Part shown: in pieces, positions 1 through 12,521 of the stretch
How positions within the stretch are numbered: position 1 is the first letter of the stretch
Layout of the letters: every line of letters starts with the position of its first letter
Source: Acidobacteriota bacterium
Lineage (GTDB): Bacteria > Acidobacteriota > Thermoanaerobaculia > Gp7-AA8
NCBI GenBank assembly: GCA_019244185.1
Contig: JAFATB010000006.1
Location: 192,001 to 256,000, forward strand
Direction: 5' to 3'
DNA length: 64,000 bases
Made by a program: the position numbers and the translations under genes
The notes under the pieces: model-generated
The model's input: the letters and a program-made list of their open reading frames with translations, nothing else
Databases searched by the model: none
Told to the model about the DNA's origin: nothing

Positions 1-2893
1 CACAATCGCGAGTCTTCGAACAGCAGTGACCGCACCCGCGAGCGCTCGCCCATCGCCGCGAGCGCACGCAGCGCAGCCATCCGACGCGTCGTGTGCTCGT
101 CGTCATCTTCACCGGCGCGAGCAATCGCAGCCAATCGTTCGACGGCATCGGACGAAGGCGTGGTAACCATGCTACGGATCTCCGTGCCGCACCACGATTG
201 GCAGGCGTCGAGTTGATGCAGGAGAAACCGTTCCAGTTCGGCCCCGCCGATGCTCAGAAGCAGCCGGTGCACCTGCCGCACGAAGTGCCGGTCGAGCGTG
301 TTCGAGCCATGCGGCGTAAACATCACGGCCACCTCGTGCAGCTTCCGCGGCAGCGCTGCGTCTCGCTGCTCGCGCAGTATGCGCAGGCCGTCCCTTGAAT
401 CGATGGATGCAAGAAGTTCGATCAAGTGCTCCAGATCCGGCGGTGGACGGTCCGGGCGGTCACTGCTCAGCGTACTGTCGATCATTGCCTCCAGACGCTC
501 GAGCGCGGCATCGATCGTCTGTTCATCGATCTCACGCTCGCCGCCGAAAGCCCCGTGAAGTGCAGCGCAGCTGTATTGGCCCGACTGAAACTTGTCGCGG
601 ATCGCGGTTCGAGTCCGGTCTGGAATGGTCAGGAGAAGCGGCGACAACCACCAGTCCTCGTAAAAGGACATGCGCTCGACTTCAGACCGTTCGAAGATTC
701 CGATTGCCACCTCCGGCTTAAGGCGGCATAGGGCGGCGAATGCTTCCTGAGTCACCCAATCGGCTTCGCTGTGAGTCCACTGAATGAGGTAGTCAACCGC
801 ATCCGAATCGCGATAACGATCAATACAGTCGATTGCCCCGCGGAACCCGTCGTTTCGGAATGCATCGAGAAAGATCGGTTTCAAATCGAACCAGAGTCGT
901 CGTCCGTCCTCATTCGCCAGGACGGCAACGAGCCACCCAAGGGTCCTCAGCTCTTCACGATCCGTCTTTGCGGTGGTCGCCGTACGGATCCATTCAGGAT
1001 CGACGCGGCAGCATGCTACGAGCGCGTGCTGCGCAAGCTGCTCTCGGTGATAACCCTCTCCGTCTTTCCCAGCGAGCTTACGCTCCCGATACAGCCGCCA
1101 AATGACGTTGAGAAGACCACCGGACGGTTGCAGTCGCGCAAGTTCAAGGCCGGCGTCCTGCACCTCGGCATTCGCGTCCTGCAGCAACGTCAGAACAAAC
1201 GCGGGACCGACTGCAAACCGAGCCGCGACCTCCTTCATGCACAGCCGAGCCTCACGCACGCGATGCCATGGCGCTTCAGGAACGCGCATGCGACTCAGAA
1301 GCGCTGGTAGCAATCCGGGCCCGATCGTGGGGAGCAGCTCTTCATATAGTTTCTGACTGGGAGCATCTTCGAGTGCCTGAAGAACCTCGACGATCTCCTC
1401 AACCGAGCGGCGGTACTGGACCAGCAACCAGACCACGTCCATCGCCACGTATCCAAGATGCCGCTCCCCTTTCTGCCGAGTCCGTCCAAACAGGTCTGCC
1501 ACCACCTCCGCTACCTTCGTTGAACTCCATTTGCCGCGTTCAAGTTGCGCAAGAACGGCACGTGCGACAGCCCAGTTCAGAAATCGATCGTGCGCGAACT
1601 CCACGCCACCGTCGACGTGAACACGCAGCCACCCGAGGCGCTGCAGCCGTAACTGCATCTCGGACGGGATGTGCAGGCCAAGCAGCACGTCTGCAGGCCA
1701 CGGATACGACTCCGGGCTGTCCAGAAATGCGTTTGCCAAGGTGACGAGTACGCCGACATCCTGCGGATGCTGCGCCTGTCCTTTGGCGGTAGAGACCTGA
1801 CGCCAGAATCGATCGTACAGCTCATATTCATTCGTCGGCTGCCAATTCGCGTCCTCCGACAGCCTGCAATACAAATCGGCCAGAATGGCGCGGCGCAGAA
1901 GTTCGAGGACGTCCTGTGGCACCCCGGCCATGCTCCGACCACGCAGCTGCAACAGCTGCGCAATTCGGACAGGCGCATCTCGCCTACCGCTTGAAGAACT
2001 ACGCGCTCCCGGACCTCGGCGTCCTCGCGGATGCGCTGGGCTGCGTTCTCGTCAGCGGTGAAGGCAACGCGAACGCCCCACTCCCTCCACGGCAGCGCGA
2101 TCAGCGCGAGCGCTTCGTCCACAGATGCCGTCAGGTCGAAGCAGACGGTCAACCAAGGCATCTCGGAGGCGATCGCCGCCTTCGCCCGCCTAACGAGCGA
2201 TTCCCAGTCGAGCGGACGATCGTGGCCTACAATGCGCTTCCAGACTTCGTCGGAGGCACGTTGCAGCGCATCCTCAATCCCCTGCCGAGTTGCAACGAAG
2301 ACGACATTCCCCGCTGCCGCGTTCTCGATGGCGACTTGCGCGAGAAGCGTTGTCTTTCCCATACCGCTTCCACCGGCGAGACAAAGAACCGTCTCGGCCG
2401 ACGGCCAGCTCACGACGCGGCGAACCGTGACCGTCACGTCGTACCGGATTTCTCCCAATCGCCGGTTCAGTTGCGCCAGCGTGGTTTCTCGGAGACCCGG
2501 GAAGCGAGCGAGCGAGATCGTCGGCAGATCCAAGCGGCGCAACAATGTCTCGAGCGTGAAGCGACGCTCCCCGCGGCTCCCGAATTGAAGCAGTAGCCCG
2601 TACAGCTCGCGGGCAACATGCGGAACATCTTCGGCGTGATCGACGTACCCGAGCAGTAACGAGCTCACTCGATCATGCGCATCGTCCGCAGACTGCCGTC
2701 GGATCTCAAACCGGGACAGAAGCGCCCACGTGCGTCGGTATGCGACGTTGTCCGGGGGATCCTCCGATTTCGAAAGACGCGCCGCCACATCGCGGAAGAA
2801 GGTCTCGTACGTGTCATCGACAAAGATGGAATCGGCTACCTCTACGATCCGGCGCGTTTCGCGGAGATCCTCGATGACGGCACGGTCGGCCTG
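1..2893 (-). pseudogene. Frameshifted, 5'-truncated STAND/NACHT-like P-loop NTPase with C-terminal HEAT/ARM-like helical repeats (putative antiphage sensor); runs off the left window edge
   Basis: Walker A 'LAGGSGMGKTTLLAQVA' near 2340-2385. After a frameshift near 1960 the minus strand reads 'QDVLELLRRAILADLY..YELYDRFW', then winged-helix-like 'VEFAHDRFLNWAVARA' near 1560-1610 and HEAT-like 'LTLLQDANAEVQDAGLELARL' near 1130-1195. Manual translation across several frameshifts. Confidence 0.7.
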
Positions 2894-2894
2894 A

Positions 2895-3185
2895 GACTCG
2901 CGGGAGGATGTCAAAGCACGCCTCCGCGAACAGTTTGTCGATGCCGACGAGCACCTGCCCGAGCAACCGCCGCGCGAGTGGCACATGACGACCTCGGGCA
3001 AATTCATCTTCCCTGACTACGAGCCGGTCGATGTCGTCGGGCGAGCGCTGTACTGGCAGGACATTGCGCAGCAACTCGCGCGTCAGCTGCGCCGGCTCGG
3101 TAAGGCAATCAACGCGACGAGTGCCGAGCAACCCGACACCATCGTCGAGCGCGCAATCGTTCGACTTCGAGGTACGTCCGAATGA
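2895..3185 (+). pseudogene. Hypothetical phage-like protein, apparently 5'-truncated
   Basis: The frame of ORF 2985..3185 is open back to the TGA at 2892-2894 and reads protein-like (DSREDVKARLREQFVDADEHLPEQPPREWHMTTSGKF..). Its stop overlaps the next start (ATGA). Confidence 0.5.
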
Positions 3186-3616
3186 ACAGGAAGGAAGTAG
3201 AAGTGCAGGCGCAGGAACGACGCTACAAGAGCATCACGAGGGTTGACTCATCCCGTGTGCACGGATGGTTCGTCCGCGTCGTGCACAACGGAGACACGCA
3301 TCCCAAACTCTTCAGCGACGGCAAGCACGGTGGCCGCGCTGCTGCATTGGCGGCAGCCGTTCGCTGGAGGAACAAGACTGAGCGCGCCATCGGCAAACCG
3401 CGTACCGAACGGATCGTCGTGGCGCGTAAGGCGGGTGCCGGAGTTCGTCGCAAGATCAAAGACGGCAGGCCAGTGTACGAAGTCACCTGGAGTCCGCGGC
3501 CGAAGAAAGTCAGCCGCACCACGTTTTCGATCGCGCTTTACGGCGAACGCGGCGCGCGCGATCTCGCGCACGCTCTGCGTGCCGAAATGGAGCGCCGCTA
3601 CTACGGATATCGATAG
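3182..3616 (+). CDS. Tandem AP2-domain DNA-binding protein (phage-type)
   Basis: Two AP2-like units: 'YKSITRVDSSRVHGWFVRV..KLFSDGKHGGRAAALAAAVRWRN' and 'GVRR..VYEVTW..SRTTFSIALYGERGARDLAHALRAEME'. ATGA coupling with the upstream gene. Confidence 0.75.
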   Translation: MNRKEVEVQAQERRYKSITRVDSSRVHGWFVRVVHNGDTHPKLFSDGKHGGRAAALAAAVRWRNKTERAIGKPRTERIVVARKAGAGVRRKIKDGRPVYEVTWSPRPKKVSRTTFSIALYGERGARDLAHALRAEMERRYYGYR

Positions 3617-3618
3617 AG

Positions 3619-3924
3619 ATGAACGATACGAACTTCCTGGATCTCGTCGAGAGCATTCGCCAAGCGGGAAAGATTCATCGCGCGATGCGCCGTCATCACA
3701 AGACCCGCAGCATCGCGGCGGCACGTCGTCTGGCCGAGCGGTGGAGCCGGCCGATCGATCGATGGCCGAATGAACGCGTGCGCAAGGCATGGGTTGAACG
3801 CACGGCGCGCCTCCTCGCCGATACACCGCACCAGTGCTCATCCACCATTCATGGCTGCGGACACAAACGCCAGCTTCTCGGCAGGACGATTCAGGAACGA
3901 AGAGCTGATGAGCGGGACGATTGA
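3619..3924 (+). CDS. Hypothetical protein (phage-like cluster)
   Basis: ATG 2 nt after the AP2 stop, GAG just upstream, helical N-terminus 'MNDTNFLDLVESIRQAGKIHR'. Confidence 0.5.
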   Translation: MNDTNFLDLVESIRQAGKIHRAMRRHHKTRSIAAARRLAERWSRPIDRWPNERVRKAWVERTARLLADTPHQCSSTIHGCGHKRQLLGRTIQERRADERDD

Positions 3925-4435
3925 GAAGGCGCGAGCGGTCCTCGCGCAACTGGAACAGACCACCGACGTTCCACGCGACGAGACTGCAGCTGCCTTGCGC
4001 GAGCTCATCGCGCTTGCCGAGGGTGTCTTCGAAGACCTCGACGACTGCAACACCAGAATCGCTCGTGCGGCGAAGGCAATCGGCGCGACGGGTTGTCCGG
4101 TGGATCAGCTGAACGCCGTGGTGCGCTACACCGAGCGCGTGGCACCGCACTTTCGCTACATCGCGGCTTCCGGTGAGCTGATTCACCGGCAGCGTGACGA
4201 GAACGGACTTCTGTCAAGCGAGTTTGTCGGGCCTATCGAGATCCGCCGTAATCGCGACGGTTCGCTGGATGAAGTCGTCGCGCAGAACGTGTTCGTCCAC
4301 CTGGAGCAGATGGCCGACAACTCGTGCTGGATGGGCGTCAGCACGTCCGACAACGCACATCTCATCCACGTCAACTTCTACTCGGATCGAGCAATCGAAG
4401 CGGAAGCTGAGGATCAGCATGCGGAGGAAGAGTGA
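3908..4435 (+). CDS. Hypothetical protein (phage-like; coiled-coil N-terminus, beta-rich C-terminus)
   Basis: The protein-like part of ORF 3770..4435 starts at ATG 3908 (MSGTIEKARAVLAQLE..) and overlaps the preceding gene. Confidence 0.6.
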   Translation: MSGTIEKARAVLAQLEQTTDVPRDETAAALRELIALAEGVFEDLDDCNTRIARAAKAIGATGCPVDQLNAVVRYTERVAPHFRYIAASGELIHRQRDENGLLSSEFVGPIEIRRNRDGSLDEVVAQNVFVHLEQMADNSCWMGVSTSDNAHLIHVNFYSDRAIEAEAEDQHAEEE

Positions 4436-4443
4436 TTGCCTTT

Positions 4444-5399
4444 TTACTTCTTCTTCGGAATCGTGCAGTCGAGAACAACCGGCGTGATGAAGAAGCCCTG
4501 CGGCCGGAAGTCCTCGGCCTGACGGGAGAGATGCGCCTCCATCTCCTCACGCGACCAGGAGTGGCACTGCTTCTTTCGTCCGTCCCCATCCGTCCAAGCT
4601 GAGGCACCGAACCAGGCCACGAGATAGATTCCGAATGGCGACGTCGAACTGCGCAGGTATTTCTCAACGAGCTGCGTTTCCATCGCGGTCGGCAAGTCGG
4701 TGTTCCAGCACCCCTTGACCTCGATCGTAACCACCAGCTTCGGATCGAGGTCGCGTCGCACGCCGCGCCCCACGGCTTCGATCTTGATGTCGGTGAAGAA
4801 ACGGTCGAAGACCTCCACTTCCTTGTTGGTGACCAAGTGCGGAAGCGCCAAATCGTCGTTCAGGAACCTGCGAATCCAGTCTCGAACTGCTCCCTCGTCC
4901 TTGGGTTGATCGTCATCCCACAGATACTTGGCCGTCGGGTCCTCGCTGTGTAGCTGCGCCTGCAGCCGCTGAAGCGACTCGATCACGACCTCCACGAGTC
5001 GCTCCGCATTCTGCACAACGCGGTTTCTTCGATCTGTCGCCAGCGCGAACAGCTCTTCCGGAGCGGGCGGAGTCCACGAATGCGTCTGTCGTTCCTCCTC
5101 CGCCATCATGATGAACTGGTCGTGAATGCGGTTCGGAAACGCGGCTTGGATGCGCCGCAGTTCGTCGACCCTTCCACGCTTGCGGAGAACGTTCAGCACC
5201 TCACTGATCGCGAGGCCGACCTGAGACTCCAGGCCCAGCTCCTCCTGCGCGCGACGCGTGTACAACCAGATCACGAGGTCAGCGATCTCGGAGTCTTTCA
5301 GCCTCGCGATGAATTCGCTGATTTGATCGGGGCCGAGGAGCGATTCGATGAGCTCCTGGCCGGTGTCACCGGCGATACGAACAAACGGCCACACCGACG
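4444..5399 (-). pseudogene. C-terminal part of a large NACHT/STAND-associated protein with a PD-(D/E)xK nuclease-like domain, truncated by the IS
   Basis: Motifs 'KDEGAVRDWI..EVEV..TDIKIEAV..VTIEVKGCWN..AMETQLVEKYL..GIYLVAWF' (D..ExK pattern). The reading frame runs up to the left TIR with no real start or RBS. Confidence 0.7.
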
Positions 5400-5435
5400 G
5401 GTGGTGGTTTACTTTGAACCTTTACTTGTAACAGG
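5400..5435 (+). repeat. Left terminal inverted repeat
   Basis: GGTGGTGGTTTACTTTGAACCTTTACTTGTAACAGG; 28/36 identical to the reverse complement of 8568-8603. Confidence 0.9.
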
Positions 5436-5466
5436 CCACGCGCCAGTTACAACCTACATTGAAACG

Positions 5467-5607
5467 TGGGTGGTGCCACCGTGGGAGTAACCCAGACATG
5501 CAGATGGGAACGTGGAGGTTTGGCTTCACCTGCGCTCGGCTCAAGACCGAGCCGCACCAGACCCCACCACACAACCCGTCCGCTCTTGCAATCGGTGGCA
5601 CCGCCCA
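5467..5607 (+). ncRNA. Structured RNA candidate, unit 1 (long hairpin, apical loop CTCAAGA)
   Basis: 15-bp closing stem 5467-5481/5593-5607. Inner stems 5500-5508/5575-5583, 5512-5523/5557-5567 and 5531-5539/5547-5556. G-U pairs indicate the + strand. Homologous to unit 2. Confidence 0.7.
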
Positions 5608-5630
5608 ACCTTGAGACCTACATTGGAGAT

Positions 5631-5760
5631 GGGGAGCGTGCGCATGAGTTAACCAGACTCAGACACTGAGCGGAGCGAGAGGTTGGGCACGCACCGGATT
5701 CCAGACCCGGCAGCACCCAGCGCTCGCATTACCCGTGTTTTGGCAATGCGCACGTTCCCC
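5631..5760 (+). ncRNA. Structured RNA candidate, unit 2 (long hairpin, apical loop TTCCAGA)
   Basis: 15-bp closing stem 5631-5645/5746-5760. Inner stems 5661-5666/5735-5740, 5675-5687/5716-5727 and 5694-5697/5707-5710. Same architecture as unit 1 with different stem sequences. Confidence 0.7.
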
Positions 5761-5773
5761 GACCTCAACCTGT

Positions 5774-5947
5774 TTACTTTCTGGATGGGTCCGGTTTGGT
5801 ACGTCGCTTGCTCTTTGGGAGGGCAGCGCGTTGACGTAGCACATCCCGGTCGGACACCGGTTTCGGACCAGTTTCGGTGTGTTCGATTACTACATCCAGA
5901 ACAGCGCGTGCTGCCTTGATCGGATCACCCCGTGATTTCGACTTCAT
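5774..5947 (-). CDS. Small basic IS passenger protein
   Basis: GAGGA RBS before ATG 5947. 'RGDPIKAARAVLDVVIEHTE' resembles the small basic proteins often seen beside ISMhu11-type transposases (from memory). Confidence 0.55.
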   Translation of the reverse strand: MKSKSRGDPIKAARAVLDVVIEHTETGPKPVSDRDVLRQRAALPKSKRRTKPDPSRK

Positions 5948-6248
5948 TGGTTCCTCGCTCACAGTCTGTAATTCTGTCTTCGAGCACGCTCAACCAGTCT
6001 TCCAAATCGTTCAACCTTGCTCCCAGACTGCTAAGCCGGGCTTCCAAACGGTACTGTTCTTGTTGTTTGTCCGCTGACTGGATCGATGCATGTTCTACCC
6101 ATAACCAAGCAAGCCACAACATCACGCCGGTTGTCAGCATGAACAGCGAGGCCAGCTTGCCTAGATAGATCAACTGCCTGCGACTGGCAGCAAACACCAC
6201 AACCGCCACCACACCGCACAGCACGTACACCCACCAGCGCGCCCTCAT
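5925..6248 (-). CDS. Membrane protein (2 TM helices plus coiled coil)
   Basis: Two hydrophobic segments, then heptad 'LEARLSSLGARLNDLEDWLSVLEDRI'. Start overlaps the upstream stop (ATGA). Confidence 0.65.
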   Translation of the reverse strand: MRARWWVYVLCGVVAVVVFAASRRQLIYLGKLASLFMLTTGVMLWLAWLWVEHASIQSADKQQEQYRLEARLSSLGARLNDLEDWLSVLEDRITDCERGTNEVEITG

Positions 6249-6547
6249 GGCGTCGCCGCCACACACCTGAACTGCACCTCCGCCTTTGGATAGTTGCCGA
6301 ACATGTACGGTGAATGACCGGTGAGAGTGTTCACCACCTGTAACATCTTCCCGTGTTCCGCGCAGAACCGACTCGCTTGCAAGGTGATGTCGGCAGTAAT
6401 CGAGTCTGAACCGATAAACCCTGTGGCTCCACGCTTATAAATCCTGTACATGTCCGTGCCGGGCAGCGCAACCACGCCCGTGGTTGAGCCGCATCCCGCG
6501 AGCATCAGCACGGCCTTTGCCACCATACGACGAAAGTGACGGTTCAT
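6245..6547 (-). CDS. Small lipoprotein
   Basis: Lipobox 'VLMLAGC', mature part with two further Cys ('ASRFCAEHGK..PKAEVQFRC'). Start set at ATG 6547 because the longer ORF overlaps the HTH gene. Confidence 0.7.
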   Translation of the reverse strand: MNRHFRRMVAKAVLMLAGCGSTTGVVALPGTDMYRIYKRGATGFIGSDSITADITLQASRFCAEHGKMLQVVNTLTGHSPYMFGNYPKAEVQFRCVAATP

Positions 6548-6636
6548 GCGGTTTGCCTCCATTCGCTCTGATACCCATAGAATGGATACCGAAAGCATGG
6601 AAAGCAAGCGCTTAACACGAACAACACTTTCGCCGA

Positions 6637-6882
6637 ATGGCGGCGCGGAGCCCAGCGGTACAGTTAGTTGGAGCACGATTGAGGGAGTTGCGGAAGTCTC
6701 GCGGACTCTCACAGGAACAACTCGGCCATCTATGCGGACTCGACCGTAACTACGTCGGTCAAATCGAGCGAGGCAACCGCAACCCTTGTTTGGACAACAT
6801 CGTGAAACTGGCAAAGGCGCTCGGCGTAACACCCGCAGACCTGTTCAGCCGGTTCGACCTCGACACGATGAGGGATGTATAA
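6637..6882 (+). CDS. XRE/Cro-family helix-turn-helix transcriptional regulator
   Basis: 'GARLRELRKSRGLSQEQLGHLCGLDRNYVGQIERGNRNPCLDNIVKLAKALGV' is a canonical HTH_3 pattern. Confidence 0.93.
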   Translation: MAARSPAVQLVGARLRELRKSRGLSQEQLGHLCGLDRNYVGQIERGNRNPCLDNIVKLAKALGVTPADLFSRFDLDTMRDV

Positions 6883-7008
6883 GGGGAATGGGGGTAACTG
6901 GGGCGCGTCCGAACCGCGCTGATGGGAACCGAAGTAGGCGTCAGTTTGTGGAACTGACCAGCCACGCCTCTCAGTACCTGTGACACCAGTTGCCCCCATT
7001 CCCCTTAT
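6879..7008 (+). ncRNA. Long-stem hairpin element 3 (23-bp inverted repeat, 84-nt structured interior)
   Basis: 6879-6901 pairs with 6986-7008 with one G-U on the + strand. Interior hairpins GCGCG-TCCGAAC-CGCGC and GTCAGTT-TGTGG-AACTGAC. Confidence 0.6.
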
Positions 7009-7152
7009 CGTTTGAATCCCACCTCGGCGCGTGTATGCCCACGGCAACAGCGCCATCAACCACTACATTCCTGTGGAATACCACCGATCCGGCCATCCGA
7101 CCGGTGTCAAGTCTGGCGTATCCACGTTACGACTCACATTGTAGGTAAGCAT

Positions 7153-7963
7153 ATGAGGAGACTGCCTAAATCCACCCGCACCAGAATTCTTGCTGCTCTC
7201 GTCGAAGGTAATTCCATTGCATCCACCTGCCGACTGGTGGGTGTGGCCAAGCTCACCGTACTGCGGCTACTGGAGGAAGTCGGTGAAGCGTGTACGGCAT
7301 TCAGCGACCGGTTCATTACCGGCATTGAATCGCCGCACGTACAGGTGGACGAGATGTGGGGGTTCTGTCAGCAGAAACAGAAGAACGTATCCCCGGAGAA
7401 TGCGGGCGTTCTGGGGTATGGCAACGTCTGGACCTACATCGCAATAGACTCACGGTCCAAACTGGTAATCACGTGGCGTGTGCGGGCATCGTAACGAGCA
7501 GACCACACGTGACTTCCTGCATGACTTGGCGTCCCGGCTGACTGGACCCGTTACGCTCTCTACTGACGGGTTCATGGGATACGTCAATGCGATACCGGAA
7601 GCGTTTGACGGAACGCTGAACTACGGGGCTGTGGAGAAACTGTACGAGCGTAACCGGTACGTCGGTGCGAACTACACGAACCGAGTGGGAAACCCGTCGA
7701 AGATATCCACGTCCCTCATCGAGCGCCAGAACCTCACGGTGAGAATGTCAAACCGGCGCATGACGCGCAAGACGAACGGTTTCTCGAAGAAACTGTCCAA
7801 CCACATCTACCAGCTGGCAATCAACTTCGTCTACTACAACTTCGTCCGCACTCACGCCACCATCAAGACGACACCAGCGCTTGCAGCCGGGATCATCGAC
7901 TACCAGTTGTCGCTTGCCGATATGACCGAGTTGGCAATCTGGAGCGATGTGCAGGCGGCGTAA
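7153..7963 (+). pseudogene. IS1-family DDE transposase with a 1-nt frameshift near 7483
   Basis: N-terminal HTH 'LVEGNSIASTCRLVGVAKLTVLRLL'. Catalytic motifs 'VQVDEMWGF', 'LSTDG' and 'STSLIERQNLTVRM..R..RKTNGFSKK'. Split between ORFs 7012..7494 and 7478..7963. Confidence 0.9.
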
Positions 7964-7977
7964 ACAGGCACAATTAC

Positions 7978-8076
7978 GCAGGCTGTCCCAATGGTCGGTA
8001 CCGTTGCGGGATTTACACTCCCGGTAGGCTCGCTGCCGTTGCCAGCGATGGGGTTCAACTCCCACAGCCTCCGCAA
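7978..8076 (+). tRNA. Irregular tRNA-like gene (8-bp acceptor, 4-bp T-stem, tRNA-Sec-like D-arm, long variable arm; anticodon TAC)
   Basis: Acceptor GCAGGCTG/CAGCCTCC (7/8 paired), discriminator G8073. D-stem CAATGGT-CGGT-ACCGTTG. Anticodon arm CGGGA-TTTACAC-TCCCG. 25-nt variable region. T-arm TGGG(G)-TTCAACT-CCCA. Ends CAA rather than CCA. Confidence 0.7.
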
Positions 8077-8084
8077 ACCCAGTC

Positions 8085-8231
8085 TAACAGGTGGGGTGAG
8101 TGGAACCATCCAAACTCGCGGTGACGACTACTGCTTGCGGGACGACTTTCCGAACGTCGGCGGCAGTTGTACGTCTGTGACACTTTGGCGAACGGATTTG
8201 GTTTGGATGGTTCCACTCACCCCACCTGTTA
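8085..8231 (+). ncRNA. Long-stem hairpin element 4 (perfect 31-bp inverted repeat, 85-nt structured interior)
   Basis: 8085-8115 TAACAGGTGGGGTGAGTGGAACCATCCAAAC is the exact reverse complement of 8201-8231. Interior 8116-8180 folds as an extended hairpin with loop ACTTTCCGAA. Confidence 0.65.
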
Positions 8232-8249
8232 TGTGCAGACTGCGTTATT

Positions 8250-8258
8250 TGCTATACT
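8250..8258 (+). promoter_or_regulatory. Putative extended -10 promoter (TGcTATACT) for the 8268 gene
   Basis: TGnTATACT lies 9 nt before the ATG and there is no SD, so the mRNA may be near-leaderless. Confidence 0.4.
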
Positions 8259-8267
8259 CTCAACCCC

Positions 8268-8594
8268 ATGACGGTCGAAGAGATACGCGTACAGAAAGCA
8301 CTGGCGATGTTGGAAGTGGAAGAGGCCGAGACCGCCCACGCTGCTGCCAGTGAGCACGCCCACGAGTTGCAAGTGGCAACTAGTGAGGCGATCAGTACTG
8401 CCCTCGATATTGCCCGTCGTTTGCCTGTGCAGGTGGATCGACTGCGCGAGACGTTGGCAGGGATTGATCTGGACGGGCTGTCAGAGGCACAGACGCAGGC
8501 CGAACGGTTTCTTGGTGCCGCTGCGGCCGCCCGAGTGAAACTGCGCGAGTTTCAACTACCCGGACGACCTGTTACAAGTGGATGGGGAAAGTAA
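8268..8594 (+). CDS. Alpha-helical/coiled-coil IS passenger protein
   Basis: 108-aa Ala/Glu-rich ORF whose stop codon lies within the right TIR. Confidence 0.6.
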   Translation: MTVEEIRVQKALAMLEVEEAETAHAAASEHAHELQVATSEAISTALDIARRLPVQVDRLRETLAGIDLDGLSEAQTQAERFLGAAAAARVKLREFQLPGRPVTSGWGK

Positions 8595-8603
8595 ACCAGT
8601 ACC
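8568..8603 (-). repeat. Right terminal inverted repeat
   Basis: Reverse complement is GGTACTGGTTTACTTTCCCCATCCACTTGTAACAGG. Confidence 0.9.
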
Positions 8604-8965
8604 CGATAACCTGCACCGGTGTGAGTTGGCCGCGTTCGGCCGCAACGTGCATTGTAGCGACGGCAATCTCTCGCGTTTTCAGATACCAAACCCAGGTCTA
8701 TCGGTGAAGATCATCAAGGATGATGACCGTCGAACGCCCACCGGTATTCATGAAACTGCCAAACTTCTTTTTCGCCCACCCCAGCGCCGATCCCGCAAAC
8801 GCTTTGAAATACCGAGCGTCGTGTTCTGGCACTGCTCGCCGACCGGATCGCGGCCATTAACCGGGTCGCCGCCCGCAAATGTGTAAGGCGTTGAAGAGTC
8901 TTGATAATTCGGATCCGGCGGCACGAATGTGCCGGTCAAGGAATCCAGCCACCGCTCCCTTGCAG
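8604..8965 (-). pseudogene. Orphan RHS core end plus pre-toxin linker, truncated by the IS
   Basis: 'ARERWLDSLTGTFVPPDP..YTFAGGDPVNGRDPVG.QCQNTTL', then after a frameshift 'GWAKKKFGSFMNTGG..AERGQLTPVQVIG'. This matches the main toxin 'ARERWFD..YTFAGGDPVNDRDPSG..CKNTTL..QWAKGAFVGFMNFGG..VERGEGTPVYVIG'. Confidence 0.8.
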
Positions 8966-9003
8966 ACACGCTAGCCACTTGACTGCATACAATCGCGGCT
9001 CCG

Positions 9004-9555
9004 CTAAAATCGACTACTTCGGCGGTTGCGTTGCATTATTTTGCGGTTCCGCGCTGCGGTGTAGTCTTTACCGTGGTCAACAGAAGGCGAATCTGAAATA
9101 TCCGAATATGGGCCGTCGGCAGCCATCTCAGGGAAGGCACGCACCGGCACTTCTACGCCTCGGACCTGTGTTACGGGCTCATATTCCACAGGTGCAAACA
9201 TCATCGGTATAAAGTCCGTGGCGAAGAATGTTCCCACTGCTATGGCGCGACTGCGATCCGCAGCCGTGATGGTCGTGAAGCCCTGGCCAGGAACGTACAG
9301 GATCTCGCCGTCTGCATCAGCGCGTGCAACCGCCGCTTCGAACGTCGCGATGTCGTTGACCATCGTCCGCTTCGCGAGTTCGTAATATTCTGTCGTGACG
9401 GTCAAATCGGCCATCTGCGTTTCGTAATCGCCGCCAATCGCGCCGCTCGTGTCGTACCACTTCCGCGCTACTGGCACACGAAGCGGCTGCCTGAACGACC
9501 TACGTTCGGTTCTCGTGAAATCGTCATAGACCTTCTTACCGCGCCCTTTCAGCAT
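9004..9555 (-). pseudogene. Orphan toxin C-terminal fragment (lead-in of an HNH-type toxin, catalytic part missing)
   Basis: 'GPYSDISDSPSVDHGKDYTAARNRKIMQRNRR' resembles the segment preceding HNH toxin domains in RHS tips (from memory). Lower GC, located in the orphan array. Confidence 0.55.
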
Positions 9556-9564
9556 CGCGAACCG

Positions 9565-10735
9565 CTCGCGTTTGCGTGGCGTCGACTTTCGTCTGCGCCG
9601 CGTCATGCGGCCGTTCGCCGTGTAGCTCGCCTGCGCGACTCGCCGATGAGCGTGCCGACCGCGCGTAGGTCTTGACGCTCTTCGGGTTGCCCCAGTCGTC
9701 GAAGTCGGTGACGGTCTTCACGCCGTTCGGAGCGAGCGACGACGTCGCGCGGCCGTGGACGTCGTACGCGACGGCGCTCGCGCTGTGGTTGTCGGCCGAG
9801 TAGACGAGGTTGCCCGCGAGGTCGTACGCGTACTGTTCGACGATCGGCGTGCCGCCGGTGGTCGTGGTGCGCTTCGCGATTCGTCCGAGCCCATCCAGTT
9901 CTTCCGTGACCACCGCGCCGCCGGGCAGCATGCGCACGATCTTGCGATTGGTGAGGTCGTAGTCGGTGGTCGTGGTGACGGAGGTGAGGCCCTCGCCCAC
10001 CGCGACGTTGTTCGTCGTCGACTGCTTCACGCGACCGAGCGGGTCGTACGCGAGCGACGTGGTCACGCTGTGGCCGTCCTGCTTGTGCGTGGTCTCGGTG
10101 AGGCGTCCGTTGAGGTCGTACTTGGACGACTCCTCGAGCGAGAGCGACGGGCCGGTGGTGACGCTCGACACCGGACGGCGCCAGCCGTCGAGGTTCGTGA
10201 GCGTCGAGACGCCGCGCTCCTCGTCGACCTTGATCTGATCGGGCCCCGGATACGCGAACTTCGTCTGCAGGCCGGAGGCATCGACGAGCTCCGGCATCGC
10301 GCGCGCGTACTCCGGCGCGGTGGCGTCGCGGAACTTGTAGCTGACTGACGCGTTGCCGCCGGCGTCGGTGCCGCCCGTGCTCGTGACGGTTTTCGGCTGG
10401 CCGTACGCGTCGACTTCGACCGTCGTCGTGATGGCGTCGTTCGTGGCCGCGACGCTCTTCTTCATCGCGCTCGGCTCGGAGGTATGGATCGTGTCGCTGC
10501 CGATGCTGACGCTCTCGAGATACGCGGGACGCGGATTCGACGATGCGTCGTCGTAGCCGAAGGTCCGCTTGATCGGCGTCGCGCCGCTGCCGCTCGTTTC
10601 GCTGGTGAAGAGCACGAAGCCGGGCGCGCCGGGCTCGATCGATTTGTAGGTGTTCGTCGTCGTGCGGATCGTGCTCGTGGCGCCGATGCCGAGAGCTCGC
10701 TTCGTCGTTTGTCGTCCTTTGAGCATGCGCCGCGG
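9565..10735 (-). repeat. Near-identical duplicate (about 1.15 kb) of an internal YD-repeat segment of the giant RHS gene (about 16188-17375)
   Basis: ORF 9536..10726 repeats 'GIGATS..TIRTTTNTYKSIEPGAPGFVLFT..DDWGNPKS' almost verbatim. The DNA aligns with scattered substitutions and indels at the ends. Confidence 0.93.
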
Positions 10736-10740
10736 CCTTC

Positions 10741-11271
10741 CTAATTCAAGTCGTACTCTGCGCCCGAACGAACGCTCGCTGTAAATCGGACGCCGCTTTC
10801 CATTAACTCTTTGCTGATGGTCCGACGTAATAGGATTTCACCTTTGAAAAGCGGCGTTTGATTTCTCGCTCGAACGATTTTGAAGGGCGCCAAAGCGTTC
10901 GCGTCGTCAGTTGCGGTACCGACTTGACCCTGATGACGGCAACGTCGCCGAACCGACCGCCTGACTGATGACCACCGTTGCCGGATTCTGCATTTGATCG
11001 ATTGCACACTTCACTCCGCCACGCCGCTGCGGCACTTCACGGATATTGATCCGCTGGGTCGCAGCCGCGACGAGGTAACTCCGCTCCTGTGCTTGATCAC
11101 CTTTCTGCGCGACTCCGAATGACTCGATAGTTCGACGGAGTTCGCGGTAAACAGTTCCGGCTTATCGAACAACCCGGTAAGAACATACTGCAGTCGTTGC
11201 TCGGCTTCGATCGCAGCCGCTGCCGTTTTCAAGTCTTCATTCACCGCGAAGAACACGATCGATTTGCTCAT
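10741..11271 (-). pseudogene. Orphan immunity protein, frameshifted
   Basis: Pieces 'MSKSIVFFAVNEDL..LQYVLTGLFDKPE', 'AIDQMQNP', 'QGQVGTATDD', 'FEREIKRRFSKVKSYYVGPSAK' and 'ELMESGVRFTASVRSGAEYDLN' join into one ~175-aa protein. GAGG RBS. Directly follows the orphan toxin. Confidence 0.7.
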
Positions 11272-11280
11272 CTCACCTCA

Positions 11281-11595
11281 CTACTGTTTCGGCTTCGGAA
11301 TCAACACCAGGTGATCACCCGGCTTTGCTGGCGAATGCGCGTCGCGCTTGGTGGCTTCGCGTGTTGTTGGCGTGATCCCATCCGCACGCGTATCCACGGT
11401 GTTGATCCGGAGCGTCCGACCGTTCTTCGTGGCCGTGATGTCACGCCATGACGAACCGCGTCGCGCTCCTCCGGGTCCAGGCAAATACTCCTCTGGCGCA
11501 CGTCCGCCACCGTACGTTACCGTCCACCCTCTTGCTTACAGCTCGTTAGTAATCTGCGCGATCTGCTCGCGCGTCTCAGGGCTGCCAAGACCGCA
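11281..11595 (-). pseudogene. Orphan RHS toxin tip (putative nuclease, REase-like fold), disrupted
   Basis: 'LGSPETREQIAQITNEL*ARGWTVTYGGGRAPEEYLPGPGGARRGSSWRDITATKNGRTLRINTVDTRADGITPTTREA..PGDHLVLIPKPK' with an in-frame TAA and small indels. Confidence 0.7.
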
Positions 11596-12050
11596 AGTCG
11601 AGCAAAGATCCCCGCTAAGAACGCTTGCGCTGTAAATTCTCCAGCCTCGCGCTCTTGCTGTTCGGGGCTGATATTGCCGGCGATAGCATGCACGCAAAAA
11701 CTTGTTGTACCCCGATGCAGTCGTTGAGCGCGATGAGAGAGACCATCGCGGTACTGCGATCCTGGCCGAGCAATTCGCTTTGCGCCGTCCGAGTCAGTCT
11801 CGTCGATAGTTCGCGGAGTCAGGTCGATGCCGCGCTCTGCTTTTACTTACCCAGCAAAATCCCTTCGGGCAGCTCGCGGCGGCTGATGGCACGGCTTAAG
11901 TGGTCGTAAGAGGCCATCTAGGGCCTTATGTTGTCACAATGTACGGCACTTCGATCCAATCATACTTTGGCGACGTCGCGCTATACCGACCCGGGGCAGG
12001 CAGATACGCATATGCCGTGGTTGGCCCAACGTAGTGGGTGCCGAGGAGCT

Positions 12051-12521
12051 TTACTTAACGGTATTTTCGTCCCAGGCCGCGTTGAAAGCGCGATGCAGCA
12101 AAGGATCATCCGGCCCAGTAGGCAACCATCCGTCCCTGACGTCCGATGAATTGAACCACTGCCATACACGATGGCATTGCTCCTCATAATACTCGCCGAC
12201 AAGGGTCATCCAATCTGAAAATGCTTGGACTCGGGCGTACTCGGCGCTTGAGTCACCGCGCCAACCATCGGGCAGGTACTCGCGCAGAAACCTAGACAAG
12301 GTATCGACTGCGAATGCCCGCATGTCGTCTGACATTTCCGCTTCCTCTTTCAAGAGGAGCTTCAACTGAATCGGCGCCACGGAACTTGAGAGAACCTCAA
12401 TCATCTGATCGAAGGTTTCAGTTCGATGCGACCGAGCAAATTCTGTCGCGCTGCGGTATCCAAGTGCACGCACCCTCGACCGCAATCGTTCGTGCCAGTC
12501 GCCATCCCAAACGTTTGTCAT
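12051..12521 (-). CDS. Cognate immunity protein of the giant RHS toxin
   Basis: ATGA overlap with the toxin stop. 'WDGDWHERLRSRVRALGYRSATEFA..GWLPTGPDDPLL' resembles proteins that follow DUF2380-type toxins (from memory). Confidence 0.85.
   Translation of the reverse strand: MTNVWDGDWHERLRSRVRALGYRSATEFARSHRTETFDQMIEVLSSSVAPIQLKLLLKEEAEMSDDMRAFAVDTLSRFLREYLPDGWRGDSSAEYARVQAFSDWMTLVGEYYEEQCHRVWQWFNSSDVRDGWLPTGPDDPLLHRAFNAAWDENTVK

Follow-up and report, generated by a model that had tools for sequence, protein, structure and literature searches.

A 64,000-nucleotide (nt) stretch of an Acidobacteriota genome (contig JAFATB010000006.1, positions 192,001 to 256,000; hereafter the window) contains a transposable element resembling the IS1 family of insertion sequences (IS), and this element carries three copies of a rod-shaped structured module, all on the transposase strand. 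Units 1 and 2 lie head to tail near its left end, and a third, diverged module precedes the transposase (Table 1). Units 1 and 2 share a fold and are homologous, with covarying stems, and a homologue of the modules stands at the end of an IS of the same family in another genus. The modules are probably functional transposon-borne RNAs. Our tentative explanation is that they form an uncatalogued family of rod-shaped RNAs of about 140 nt, borne by the transposon and acting on the element's own transcripts; that this action would keep transposase output low is possible, if somewhat doubtful.

Fold, homology and distribution of the modules

The plus-strand region 5452-5775 consists of two head-to-tail units with a period of 164 bp (unit 1, 5452-5615; unit 2, 5616-5769). 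An earlier note on this DNA, made from the letters alone, had described such tandem units, and the box ACCTACATTG that opens them is indeed found at 5452 and 5616. From 5' to 3', each unit comprises this box, five bases and a 15-bp closing stem, P1, which is formed by 5467-5481 and 5593-5607 in unit 1 and by 5631-5645 and 5746-5760 in unit 2. The arms are 93% complementary in each unit and the stem sequences differ between the units, in agreement with the divergent but paired stems of the note. The conserved segment GAGT(A/T)A(C/A)CCAGAC (GAGTAACCCAGAC at 5485-5497 in unit 1, GAGTTAACCAGAC at 5646-5658 in unit 2) is present in both units, as are GGTT(T/G)GG (GGTTTGG and GGTTGGG, respectively), ACCCGT and GCAAT, all of which the note had listed.

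On the plus strand unit 1 folds with -74.7 kcal/mol (z = -5.15) and unit 2 with -67.8 kcal/mol (z = -4.33), and in neither case is any of 200 shuffled sequences as good; the minus-strand folds have z = -2.72 (unit 1) and -4.12 (unit 2). Each unit is an unbranched rod in which P1 is followed by a large asymmetric internal loop (about 21 and 12 nt) holding the conserved boxes, by helices P3-P6 and by an apical loop, and the two units fold in the same way within a 535-nt transcript as when isolated. The earlier note had placed a 7-nt apical loop on a stem of about 5 bp in both units. This is correct for unit 1 (CUCAAGA on 5 bp), but unit 2 has a 9-nt loop, AUUCCAGAC, on a 4-bp stem and reaches 7 nt only if an A.C mismatch is taken as the closing pair. 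A third unit directly after unit 2 was considered and rejected, the segment 5762-5930 being unstructured (z = -0.56).

Because MAFFT misplaces the stems, a covariance model was seeded with unit 1 alone and its own structure and searched against the window. It recovers unit 2 end to end with 41.1 bits (E = 7.4e-9 for the 64-kb window; unit 1 itself scores 215 bits), the runners-up being unit 1 on the reverse strand (14.5 bits) and a 7.5-bit spurious match. In the model alignment of the two units 92.6% of the cells are paired, versus 35-39% with slid partners, and both sides have changed in 12 of the 41 pairs, eight of these 12 in P1. The pair counts exclude RNAalifold runs on MAFFT alignments, in which the stems are misaligned. 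These values uphold the homology with retained pairing that the note had proposed. A plain local alignment of unit 1 with unit 2 is not significant (p = 0.30); the likeness of the units is one of structure plus short boxes. Unit 1 contains three U-G pairs and no mismatches, unit 2 three G-U pairs together with one C.A and one A.C cell, and this balance of six G-U pairs against two A.C/C.A cells favours the plus strand.

A model of both units, run with filters off, aligns 6871-7009 end to end with 16.9 bits. In this alignment GAUGGGAAC is identical to unit 1, and CAGUACCUGU stands against CAUUACCCGU. This third module begins at the stop codon that ends the XRE/HipB-like gene, and the transposase starts 144 nt further on. 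Over all three modules 93.9% of the cells are paired and both sides have changed in 21 of 41 pairs, a count that leans towards structure because the alignment of the third module was fitted to the model. In the element's own genome the three-module model finds these three places only. Among 123 other genomes of the family it has a single match, in a genome of a different genus (G601; 34.1 bits, E = 7.1e-6 per genome). The G601 module starts with ACCTAC, spaces box and stem more closely than the units do, shares TGGGAACGT with unit 1 and is closed by a stem of its own, 10 bp long; its apical hairpin, with the loop ACUCCAGAC, strongly resembles the one in unit 2, and the fold has z = -2.47. No gap separates the 3' arm of the closing stem from the end of an IS of the same family, and the module lies on the inner side of that end. 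There is no transposase in the 1.3 kb of contig inside that IS end, and the G601 module may be a relic. Each module either shares the orientation of the transposase or points to the transposase-distal end.

Covariance-model searches covered about 480 genomes and about 190 loci, and large collections were scanned by exact pattern; one genome (G024) enters the negative counts only. In the element's own genome the two-unit model matches units 1 and 2 only, and it has no match in 34 same-genus genomes or in 150 genomes of the class. It gave one 23.7-bit match in 150 genomes of the phylum, judged to be chance, one partial match (16.9 bits) at 80 loci of distant IS1-like relatives and one plain hairpin (19.1 bits) at seven loci with the same IS end. 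The three-module model has no match in 150 genomes of the class, and a 26-bit match of this model in another genome (G579) was rejected as a plain hairpin lacking the boxes. BLAST of the units and of the passenger segment against 60 relatives returned two 28-nt chance matches only, and against plasmids and phages no match. The pattern ACCTACATTG..GAGTWAMCCAGAC is absent from the genome contigs scanned, and a three-box pattern from the metagenome contigs. Looser patterns gave candidates that were all rejected: two low-GC chance matches to a two-box pattern in metagenomes (best 10.9 bits), chance matches at 7 and 13 loci in viral contigs (no match of the model, in phage sequence unlike the units), and 41 matches of a 24-nt apical-hairpin pattern outside the own genome in 350 phylum genomes against 28 for the control, the best five genomes being negative with the model. 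Rfam 15 has no match in the whole window at gathering scores; at E values up to 10, the segment 5300-6000 yields only Histone3 (12.4 bits, E = 6) and no 6S RNA, which speaks against the 6S-like alternative raised in the earlier note. The homologues for which that note had proposed a covariance-model search are the third module and the G601 module, all other sets being negative.

The IS1-like carrier and its surroundings

Units 1 and 2 lie inside the IS1-family-like element, which spans 5400-8603 (3.2 kb) and is single-copy in the genome. For 8568-8605, the left terminal repeat is by far the best inverted match that the 64-kb window offers (score 36, background 18-20). The left end also resembles, at 81%, the end of the only other related transposase copy in the genome (score 39). 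IS1 ends have the form GGnnnTG, which the termini of the element, GGTGGTG and GGTACTG, fit. The end motif TGGTYTASTTT..GTAACAGG occurs in six of 120 other genomes of the same family, the reversed control giving no match; at six of eight end-motif loci the transposase is present, and there its 3' end is nearest that end. The direct target duplication of IS1 is 8-9 bp long. No target duplication is seen at the element, whose flanks (5391-5399 and 8604-8612) differ, and the missing part of the NACHT gene that borders it on the left (see below) does not resume in the DNA to its right; together these observations fit a later deletion beside the element.

The two transposase frames match NF033558 with E = 5.4e-8 and 8.2e-5, under the 100-bit cut-off, and the transposase matches DDE_Tnp_IS1 of Pfam with E = 3e-4, below the cut-off; an intact 310-aa relative likewise remains under the cut-off of NF033558 (E = 1.7e-17). 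Between the terminal repeats the order is units 1 and 2, two small minus-strand open reading frames (ORFs), the XRE/HipB-like gene, the third module (stem-closed at 6879-7008), the transposase, a hairpin and a 108-aa ORF. The passenger genes (5925-6545 and 6637-6882) may form a small toxin-antitoxin-like or exclusion module; for the small membrane protein among them (5925-6248, minus strand) no relative was found in 400 genomes of the phylum and no useful match in the Atlas. The hairpin downstream of the transposase shares the inner motifs CCGAACGTNGGCGNCAGTT (p = 0.003) and CTGTGACAC with the third module. It is unique in the genome, and public assemblies break there. As a further module it was rejected, since the covariance model matches its stem only.

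Table 1. Positions of the modules, the parts of the IS1-like element and the truncated gene on its left, numbered along the window
Feature	Position	Strand	Description
3' remnant of EruA-like NACHT anti-phage gene	4444-5394	-	316 aa; NF058535
Left terminal inverted repeat	5400-5436	+	Read inward from the outside; 38-nt repeat at 5398-5435, 79% complementary to 8568-8605
Small hairpin before unit 1	5426-5452	+	Inner part of the IS repeat and an inverted copy; 11-nt arms, 91% complementary, 5 nt apart
Box ACCTACATTG ahead of unit 1	5452-5461	+	10 nt; contains the -10-like hexamer TACATT
Unit 1, closing stem to closing stem	5467-5607	+	P1 of 15 bp, conserved internal loop, helices P3-P6, apical loop CUCAAGA
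Box ACCTACATTG ahead of unit 2, second copy	5616-5625	+	10 nt; direct repeat
Unit 2	5631-5760	+	Architecture as unit 1; apical loop AUUCCAGAC
Lipoprotein-like ORF and membrane/coiled-coil ORF	5925-6545	-	Passenger genes
XRE/HipB-like regulator	6637-6882	+	Passenger gene, divergent from the minus-strand ORFs
Third, diverged module	6871-7009	+	23-bp closing stem, GAUGGGAAC as in unit 1, apical loop UUGUGGA
Transposase leader	7111-7146	+	GTCTGG..GTTAC..CTC..CATTGTAGGT; ends 6 nt before ATG
IS1-family-like transposase, two frames	7153-7494 and 7478-7963	+	Frameshifted
Hairpin downstream of the transposase	8085-8231		Perfect 31-bp arms 85 nt apart; z = -8.8
Right terminal inverted repeat	8568-8603	-	Partner of the left repeat

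The second IS1-like copy of the genome (G000:C6:476485-477672) is 1.2 kb long and has its frameshift at another place. The box ACCTACATTG has only three copies in the 5.3-Mb genome, and the one outside the units lies beside this second IS copy, with a small hairpin after it and a tRNA-Ser gene about 45 nt away. Copies of this IS family are found within about 150 nt of tRNA genes at three of the nine loci scanned, which may reflect a target preference. In a further genome (G027; L144 1444-1502) a 32-nt perfect palindrome of two IS termini lies directly outside an IS end, an indication that the IS family spawns tiny end-derived fold-backs.

The 316-aa ORF on the left of the element matches NF058535, the EruA profile of 1318 positions, at positions 1094-1303 only (E = 3.9e-25), a score that falls far short of the equivalog cut-off, and in relatives its domain ends much longer proteins. 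A same-genus genome (G003) has 80% DNA identity to 3587-5395 of the window and continues into a 1349-aa gene (L052 7823-11872, minus strand), which matches the EruA profile over its full length (E = 4.5e-83, below the cut-off). The homology ends exactly at 5395 and the IS repeat starts directly after it, so that the ORF is the truncated remnant of a defence gene; as a partner of the unit RNA it was therefore rejected. The locus is a clean case of a transposon truncating a defence gene, here one for an EruA-like NACHT protein, in an uncultured acidobacterium from soil. A literature search on EruA, HyoA and NACHT found nothing. Scans of the 1-12500 ORFs with Pfam, PADLOC, PHROGs and NCBIfam reveal no reverse transcriptase, and no endoribonuclease toxin or known defence protein is seen among the neighbours of the units.

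Further out, an ORF of 7309 codons occupies 12518-34447 on the minus strand, with an RHS-repeat ORF downstream of it (9536-10726, minus strand). Within the giant ORF, at a distance of 3 kb, G000:C6:208191-209318 has 96% identity to the segment 9567-10691, and the region looks like an RHS toxin locus with orphan cassettes. At the left edge of the window (3-3007, minus strand) an ORF for a STAND-type P-loop NTPase (1577-3007) overlaps a HEAT-repeat ORF (3-1952) in a different frame; the two are probably one frameshifted gene. At the G601 loci, the DNA immediately beyond the IS end (L150 ~1150-1460) is a long array of tandem repeats of about 20 nt (GATCAACGTCGATCGAC type), and a gene for a Bcp-type peroxiredoxin (L151 ~3850-4340, minus strand) has an in-frame TGA at the position of the expected catalytic Cys (TPG-TGA-T), after which the frame continues; by its sequence the protein is a candidate selenoprotein.

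Possible roles of the modules

If the modules work on the element's own transcripts, they would be transcribed with, or just ahead of, its genes. They could then serve as barriers to transcripts that enter from outside or as processing or stability points, or their unpaired boxes (ACCUACAUUG, GAGUAAC and CCAGAC) might pair with the transposase leader; under any of these options transposase output would be held down. The leader contains motifs that are the reverse complement of the boxes of the units, in the same order, and its alignment with the units has p = 0.002 and 0.016 versus shuffled leaders; a regular expression for the leader, framed post hoc, matches nowhere else in the genome. The hexamer TACATT of the box ends 6 nt ahead of the closing stem in both units. 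At the third copy of the box, beside the second IS, TTGACC and 17 bases precede it, a spacing which suggests that the box may be a -10 element. Action as RNA, the direction of transcription and a regulatory role are inferred.

A number of results weigh against this reading. A promoter scan of 5200-6100 found no sigma-70-like site and no -35 element at the units. A terminator scan found no site within them, two overlapping sites at 5388-5406 being the only ones, and no closing stem is followed by a U-tract (the unit tails are ACCUUGAG and GACCUCAAC). When the whole window is scanned with gaps allowed, the leader does not rank first and other tiles reach its score, and the energies of the duplexes between boxes and leader rank 81 and 113 of 4264 tiles, which is not exceptional. 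For the third module the support is a score of 16.9 bits and a model-fitted alignment. Four public sequencing runs contain the stretch and all are DNA, no RNA run being listed; contigs of the DNA runs match the window without differences, and that the X4 contigs do not cover the units carries no weight. Modules occur in two elements only: the second IS copy, the seven end-motif loci and the 80 IS1-like loci are without them, and they are thus not needed by this IS family. With the transposase frameshifted here and none within reach at G601, both carriers may be dead.

It is unlikely, in our estimate, that the modules are instead free-standing small RNAs which the transposon carries as cargo and which act in trans on a partner of the host or a phage, for example as a sponge for a protein that binds C(A/C)AGAC. 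Units 1 and 2, 324 nt together, contain five copies of the pentamer CAGAC, each on the plus strand, versus 42 in the entire 64-kb window (0.1 per 160 nt). Both units have it in their internal loop, and it recurs in the apical loops of unit 2 and of the G601 module (AAGAC in unit 1); one copy in unit 1 sits in a helix strand. With TACATT 6 nt before the stems a transcript could start at the stem base, and the surroundings are an island of defence and RHS genes. However, the third module has no CAGAC and the element encodes no candidate binding protein, and the missing -35 element, promoter call and internal terminator, like the DNA-only runs, count against this explanation too. Quite unlikely is a role of the units as DNA, whether as fold-back derivatives of the IS comparable to miniature inverted-repeat transposable elements (MITEs) or as sub-terminal arrays of protein sites, with the stems as by-products of inverted duplication. 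The 5' arm of the closing stem of unit 1 shares GGGTGGTG, in the same register, with the left terminus of the element, the IS family spawns small end-derived palindromes such as the one in G027, and a second pair of long stem-closed modules that share inner motifs flanks the transposase, one of the pair being the hairpin with perfect arms at 8085-8231. Similarity of the units to the IS ends, however, is not significant (p = 0.05-0.99). There are no target-site duplications at the flanks of the units, and the closing stems differ where MITE ends should be alike; the four inner helices covary too and the G-U bias favours one strand. Neither a matching GTCTG cluster at the right end nor further copies in the genome are found.

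We consider it distinctly unlikely that the modules are unusually large terminators or insulators between the gene units of the element that have no sequence-specific partner. In keeping with such a role, the third module begins at the XRE stop codon and the units lie 150 nt past the stop of a convergent small-protein operon; the closing stems, however, have no U-tract after them, the terminator scan is negative at the units, and a hairpin terminator would not need the conserved unpaired boxes (10/10 and 11/13 positions). Highly improbable is the proposal of the earlier note that the modules are a scaffold for anticodon-type loops with a variable triplet and work like a programmable or decoy array; the decoy would be aimed at anticodon nucleases or at enzymes that bind tRNA. 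Four members are too few to refute the loop rule of the note: all four apical loops, CUCAAGA (unit 1), UUCCAGA (unit 2), CUCCAGA (G601) and UUGUGGA (third module), can be written as Y-U-NNN-G-A, and they hold only three different triplets (CAA, CCA, CCA and GUG). Two of the four, those of unit 2 and G601, require an A.C closing mismatch to reach 7 nt, and in the minimum-energy fold of the third module the loop shrinks to 3 nt. The loop of the third module is identical in seven of seven positions to that of the host tRNA-His as found by ARAGORN in the whole genome, and is the only one of the module loops to equal its cognate; the closeness of the IS family to tRNA genes at three of nine loci and the adjoining RHS toxin and defence genes would also suit a decoy. 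Against this, the modules have G after the triplet whereas the host Leu(CAA) and Trp(CCA) loops (CUCAAAA and CUCCAAA; His(GUG), UUGUGGA) have A at this position, 37. The stems agree with the cognate arms at 2, 6, 6 and 3-4 of 10 positions, a value of 6 being reached by 11-22 of the 55 host arms; the module stems show no specific mimicry of cognate tRNA arms. ARAGORN detects no tRNA or tmRNA gene in the window or at the G601 module (L151), and the loop motif is part of the repeated CCAGAC box, which also occurs outside the loop. No mimicry test supports a decoy or a programmable array. In a bolder combination of these ideas, this IS1-like DDE family would carry a dedicated multi-copy structured RNA that combines a conserved scaffold, closing stems that vary and a 7-nt anticodon-shaped loop and that plays a part in the life cycle of the element. 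Such an RNA might curb translation of the transposase in trans, or it might serve in recognition or as a decoy in connection with the position of the family next to tRNA genes; we think this combination very unlikely. RNA partners are known for IS10, IS200/IS605 and IS110, but we know of none for IS1-type elements. Were the combination true, it would give an RNA partner to a transposase family where none is known.

Comparison with known systems

Returning to the explanation that we favour, modules acting on the transcripts of their own transposon, such modules, should they be functional RNAs, would add to the known RNA families one that belongs to a classical cut-and-paste insertion sequence. 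Among the genomes searched the family is very rare (two carriers), and as both carriers look decayed its practical weight is, for the present, modest.

Several known RNAs and repeats resemble the modules in part. Like 6S RNA (RF00013), they are rods in which a closing stem leads, through a large asymmetric internal loop, into a long terminal stem with interruptions. Unlike 6S RNA, a housekeeping RNA conserved among relatives, they stand in tandem in a single-copy mobile element and were not found in 34 same-genus genomes or in the samples of 150 phylum and 150 class genomes; they are also shorter than typical 6S RNA. With repetitive extragenic palindromic (REP) sequences, REPINs and MITEs they share long hairpin stretches, sometimes directly after a stop codon, and the tie to mobile DNA. 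Those repeats, however, come as dozens of near-identical copies with shared ends, whereas the modules are unique in the genome and differ in their closing stems while the inner boxes and helices are conserved. The thrS operator of E. coli mimics a tRNA anticodon arm, and the module loops can be written in the form of such mimics, 7-nt Y-U-NNN-R-A on a short stem; unlike in the thrS operator, neither the stem nor position 37 matches a cognate tRNA and no synthetase or tRNA gene is under the control of the modules. CsrB and RsmZ are sponge RNAs that present many GGA motifs. The modules likewise repeat a short motif in the unpaired parts of a multi-hairpin RNA, but this motif is CCAGAC rather than GGA, is present in two to three copies per unit and has no known binding protein. 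Type III antitoxins of the ToxI kind consist of short tandem repeats of about 36 nt followed, on the same strand, by the gene of an endoribonuclease toxin. The earlier note had offered them as another alternative, which does not hold: the period is 164 nt, no plus-strand gene follows the units for 860 nt, neither PADLOC nor Pfam finds a toxin among the neighbours, and there is no array of short repeats ahead of an endoribonuclease gene. Unlike at a retron msr-msd locus, no reverse transcriptase is encoded among the ORFs of 1-12500.

Closest in setting are the regulatory RNAs encoded by transposons, such as RNA-OUT of IS10 and the art200 antisense RNA and 5' stem-loop of IS200. Like these, the modules would be structured RNAs within an IS, with unpaired bases able to pair with the region of the transposase ribosome-binding site. 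The RNAs of IS10 and IS200 are true antisense transcripts of the 5' end of the transposase gene, whereas the modules are on the sense strand, 1.5-1.7 kb away (144 nt for the third). The modules also differ from them in being 140 nt long, with multiple helices and in two to three copies, and in that their pairing with the leader is partial. The module family matches nothing catalogued; in kind, it would be a structured RNA carried by an insertion sequence.

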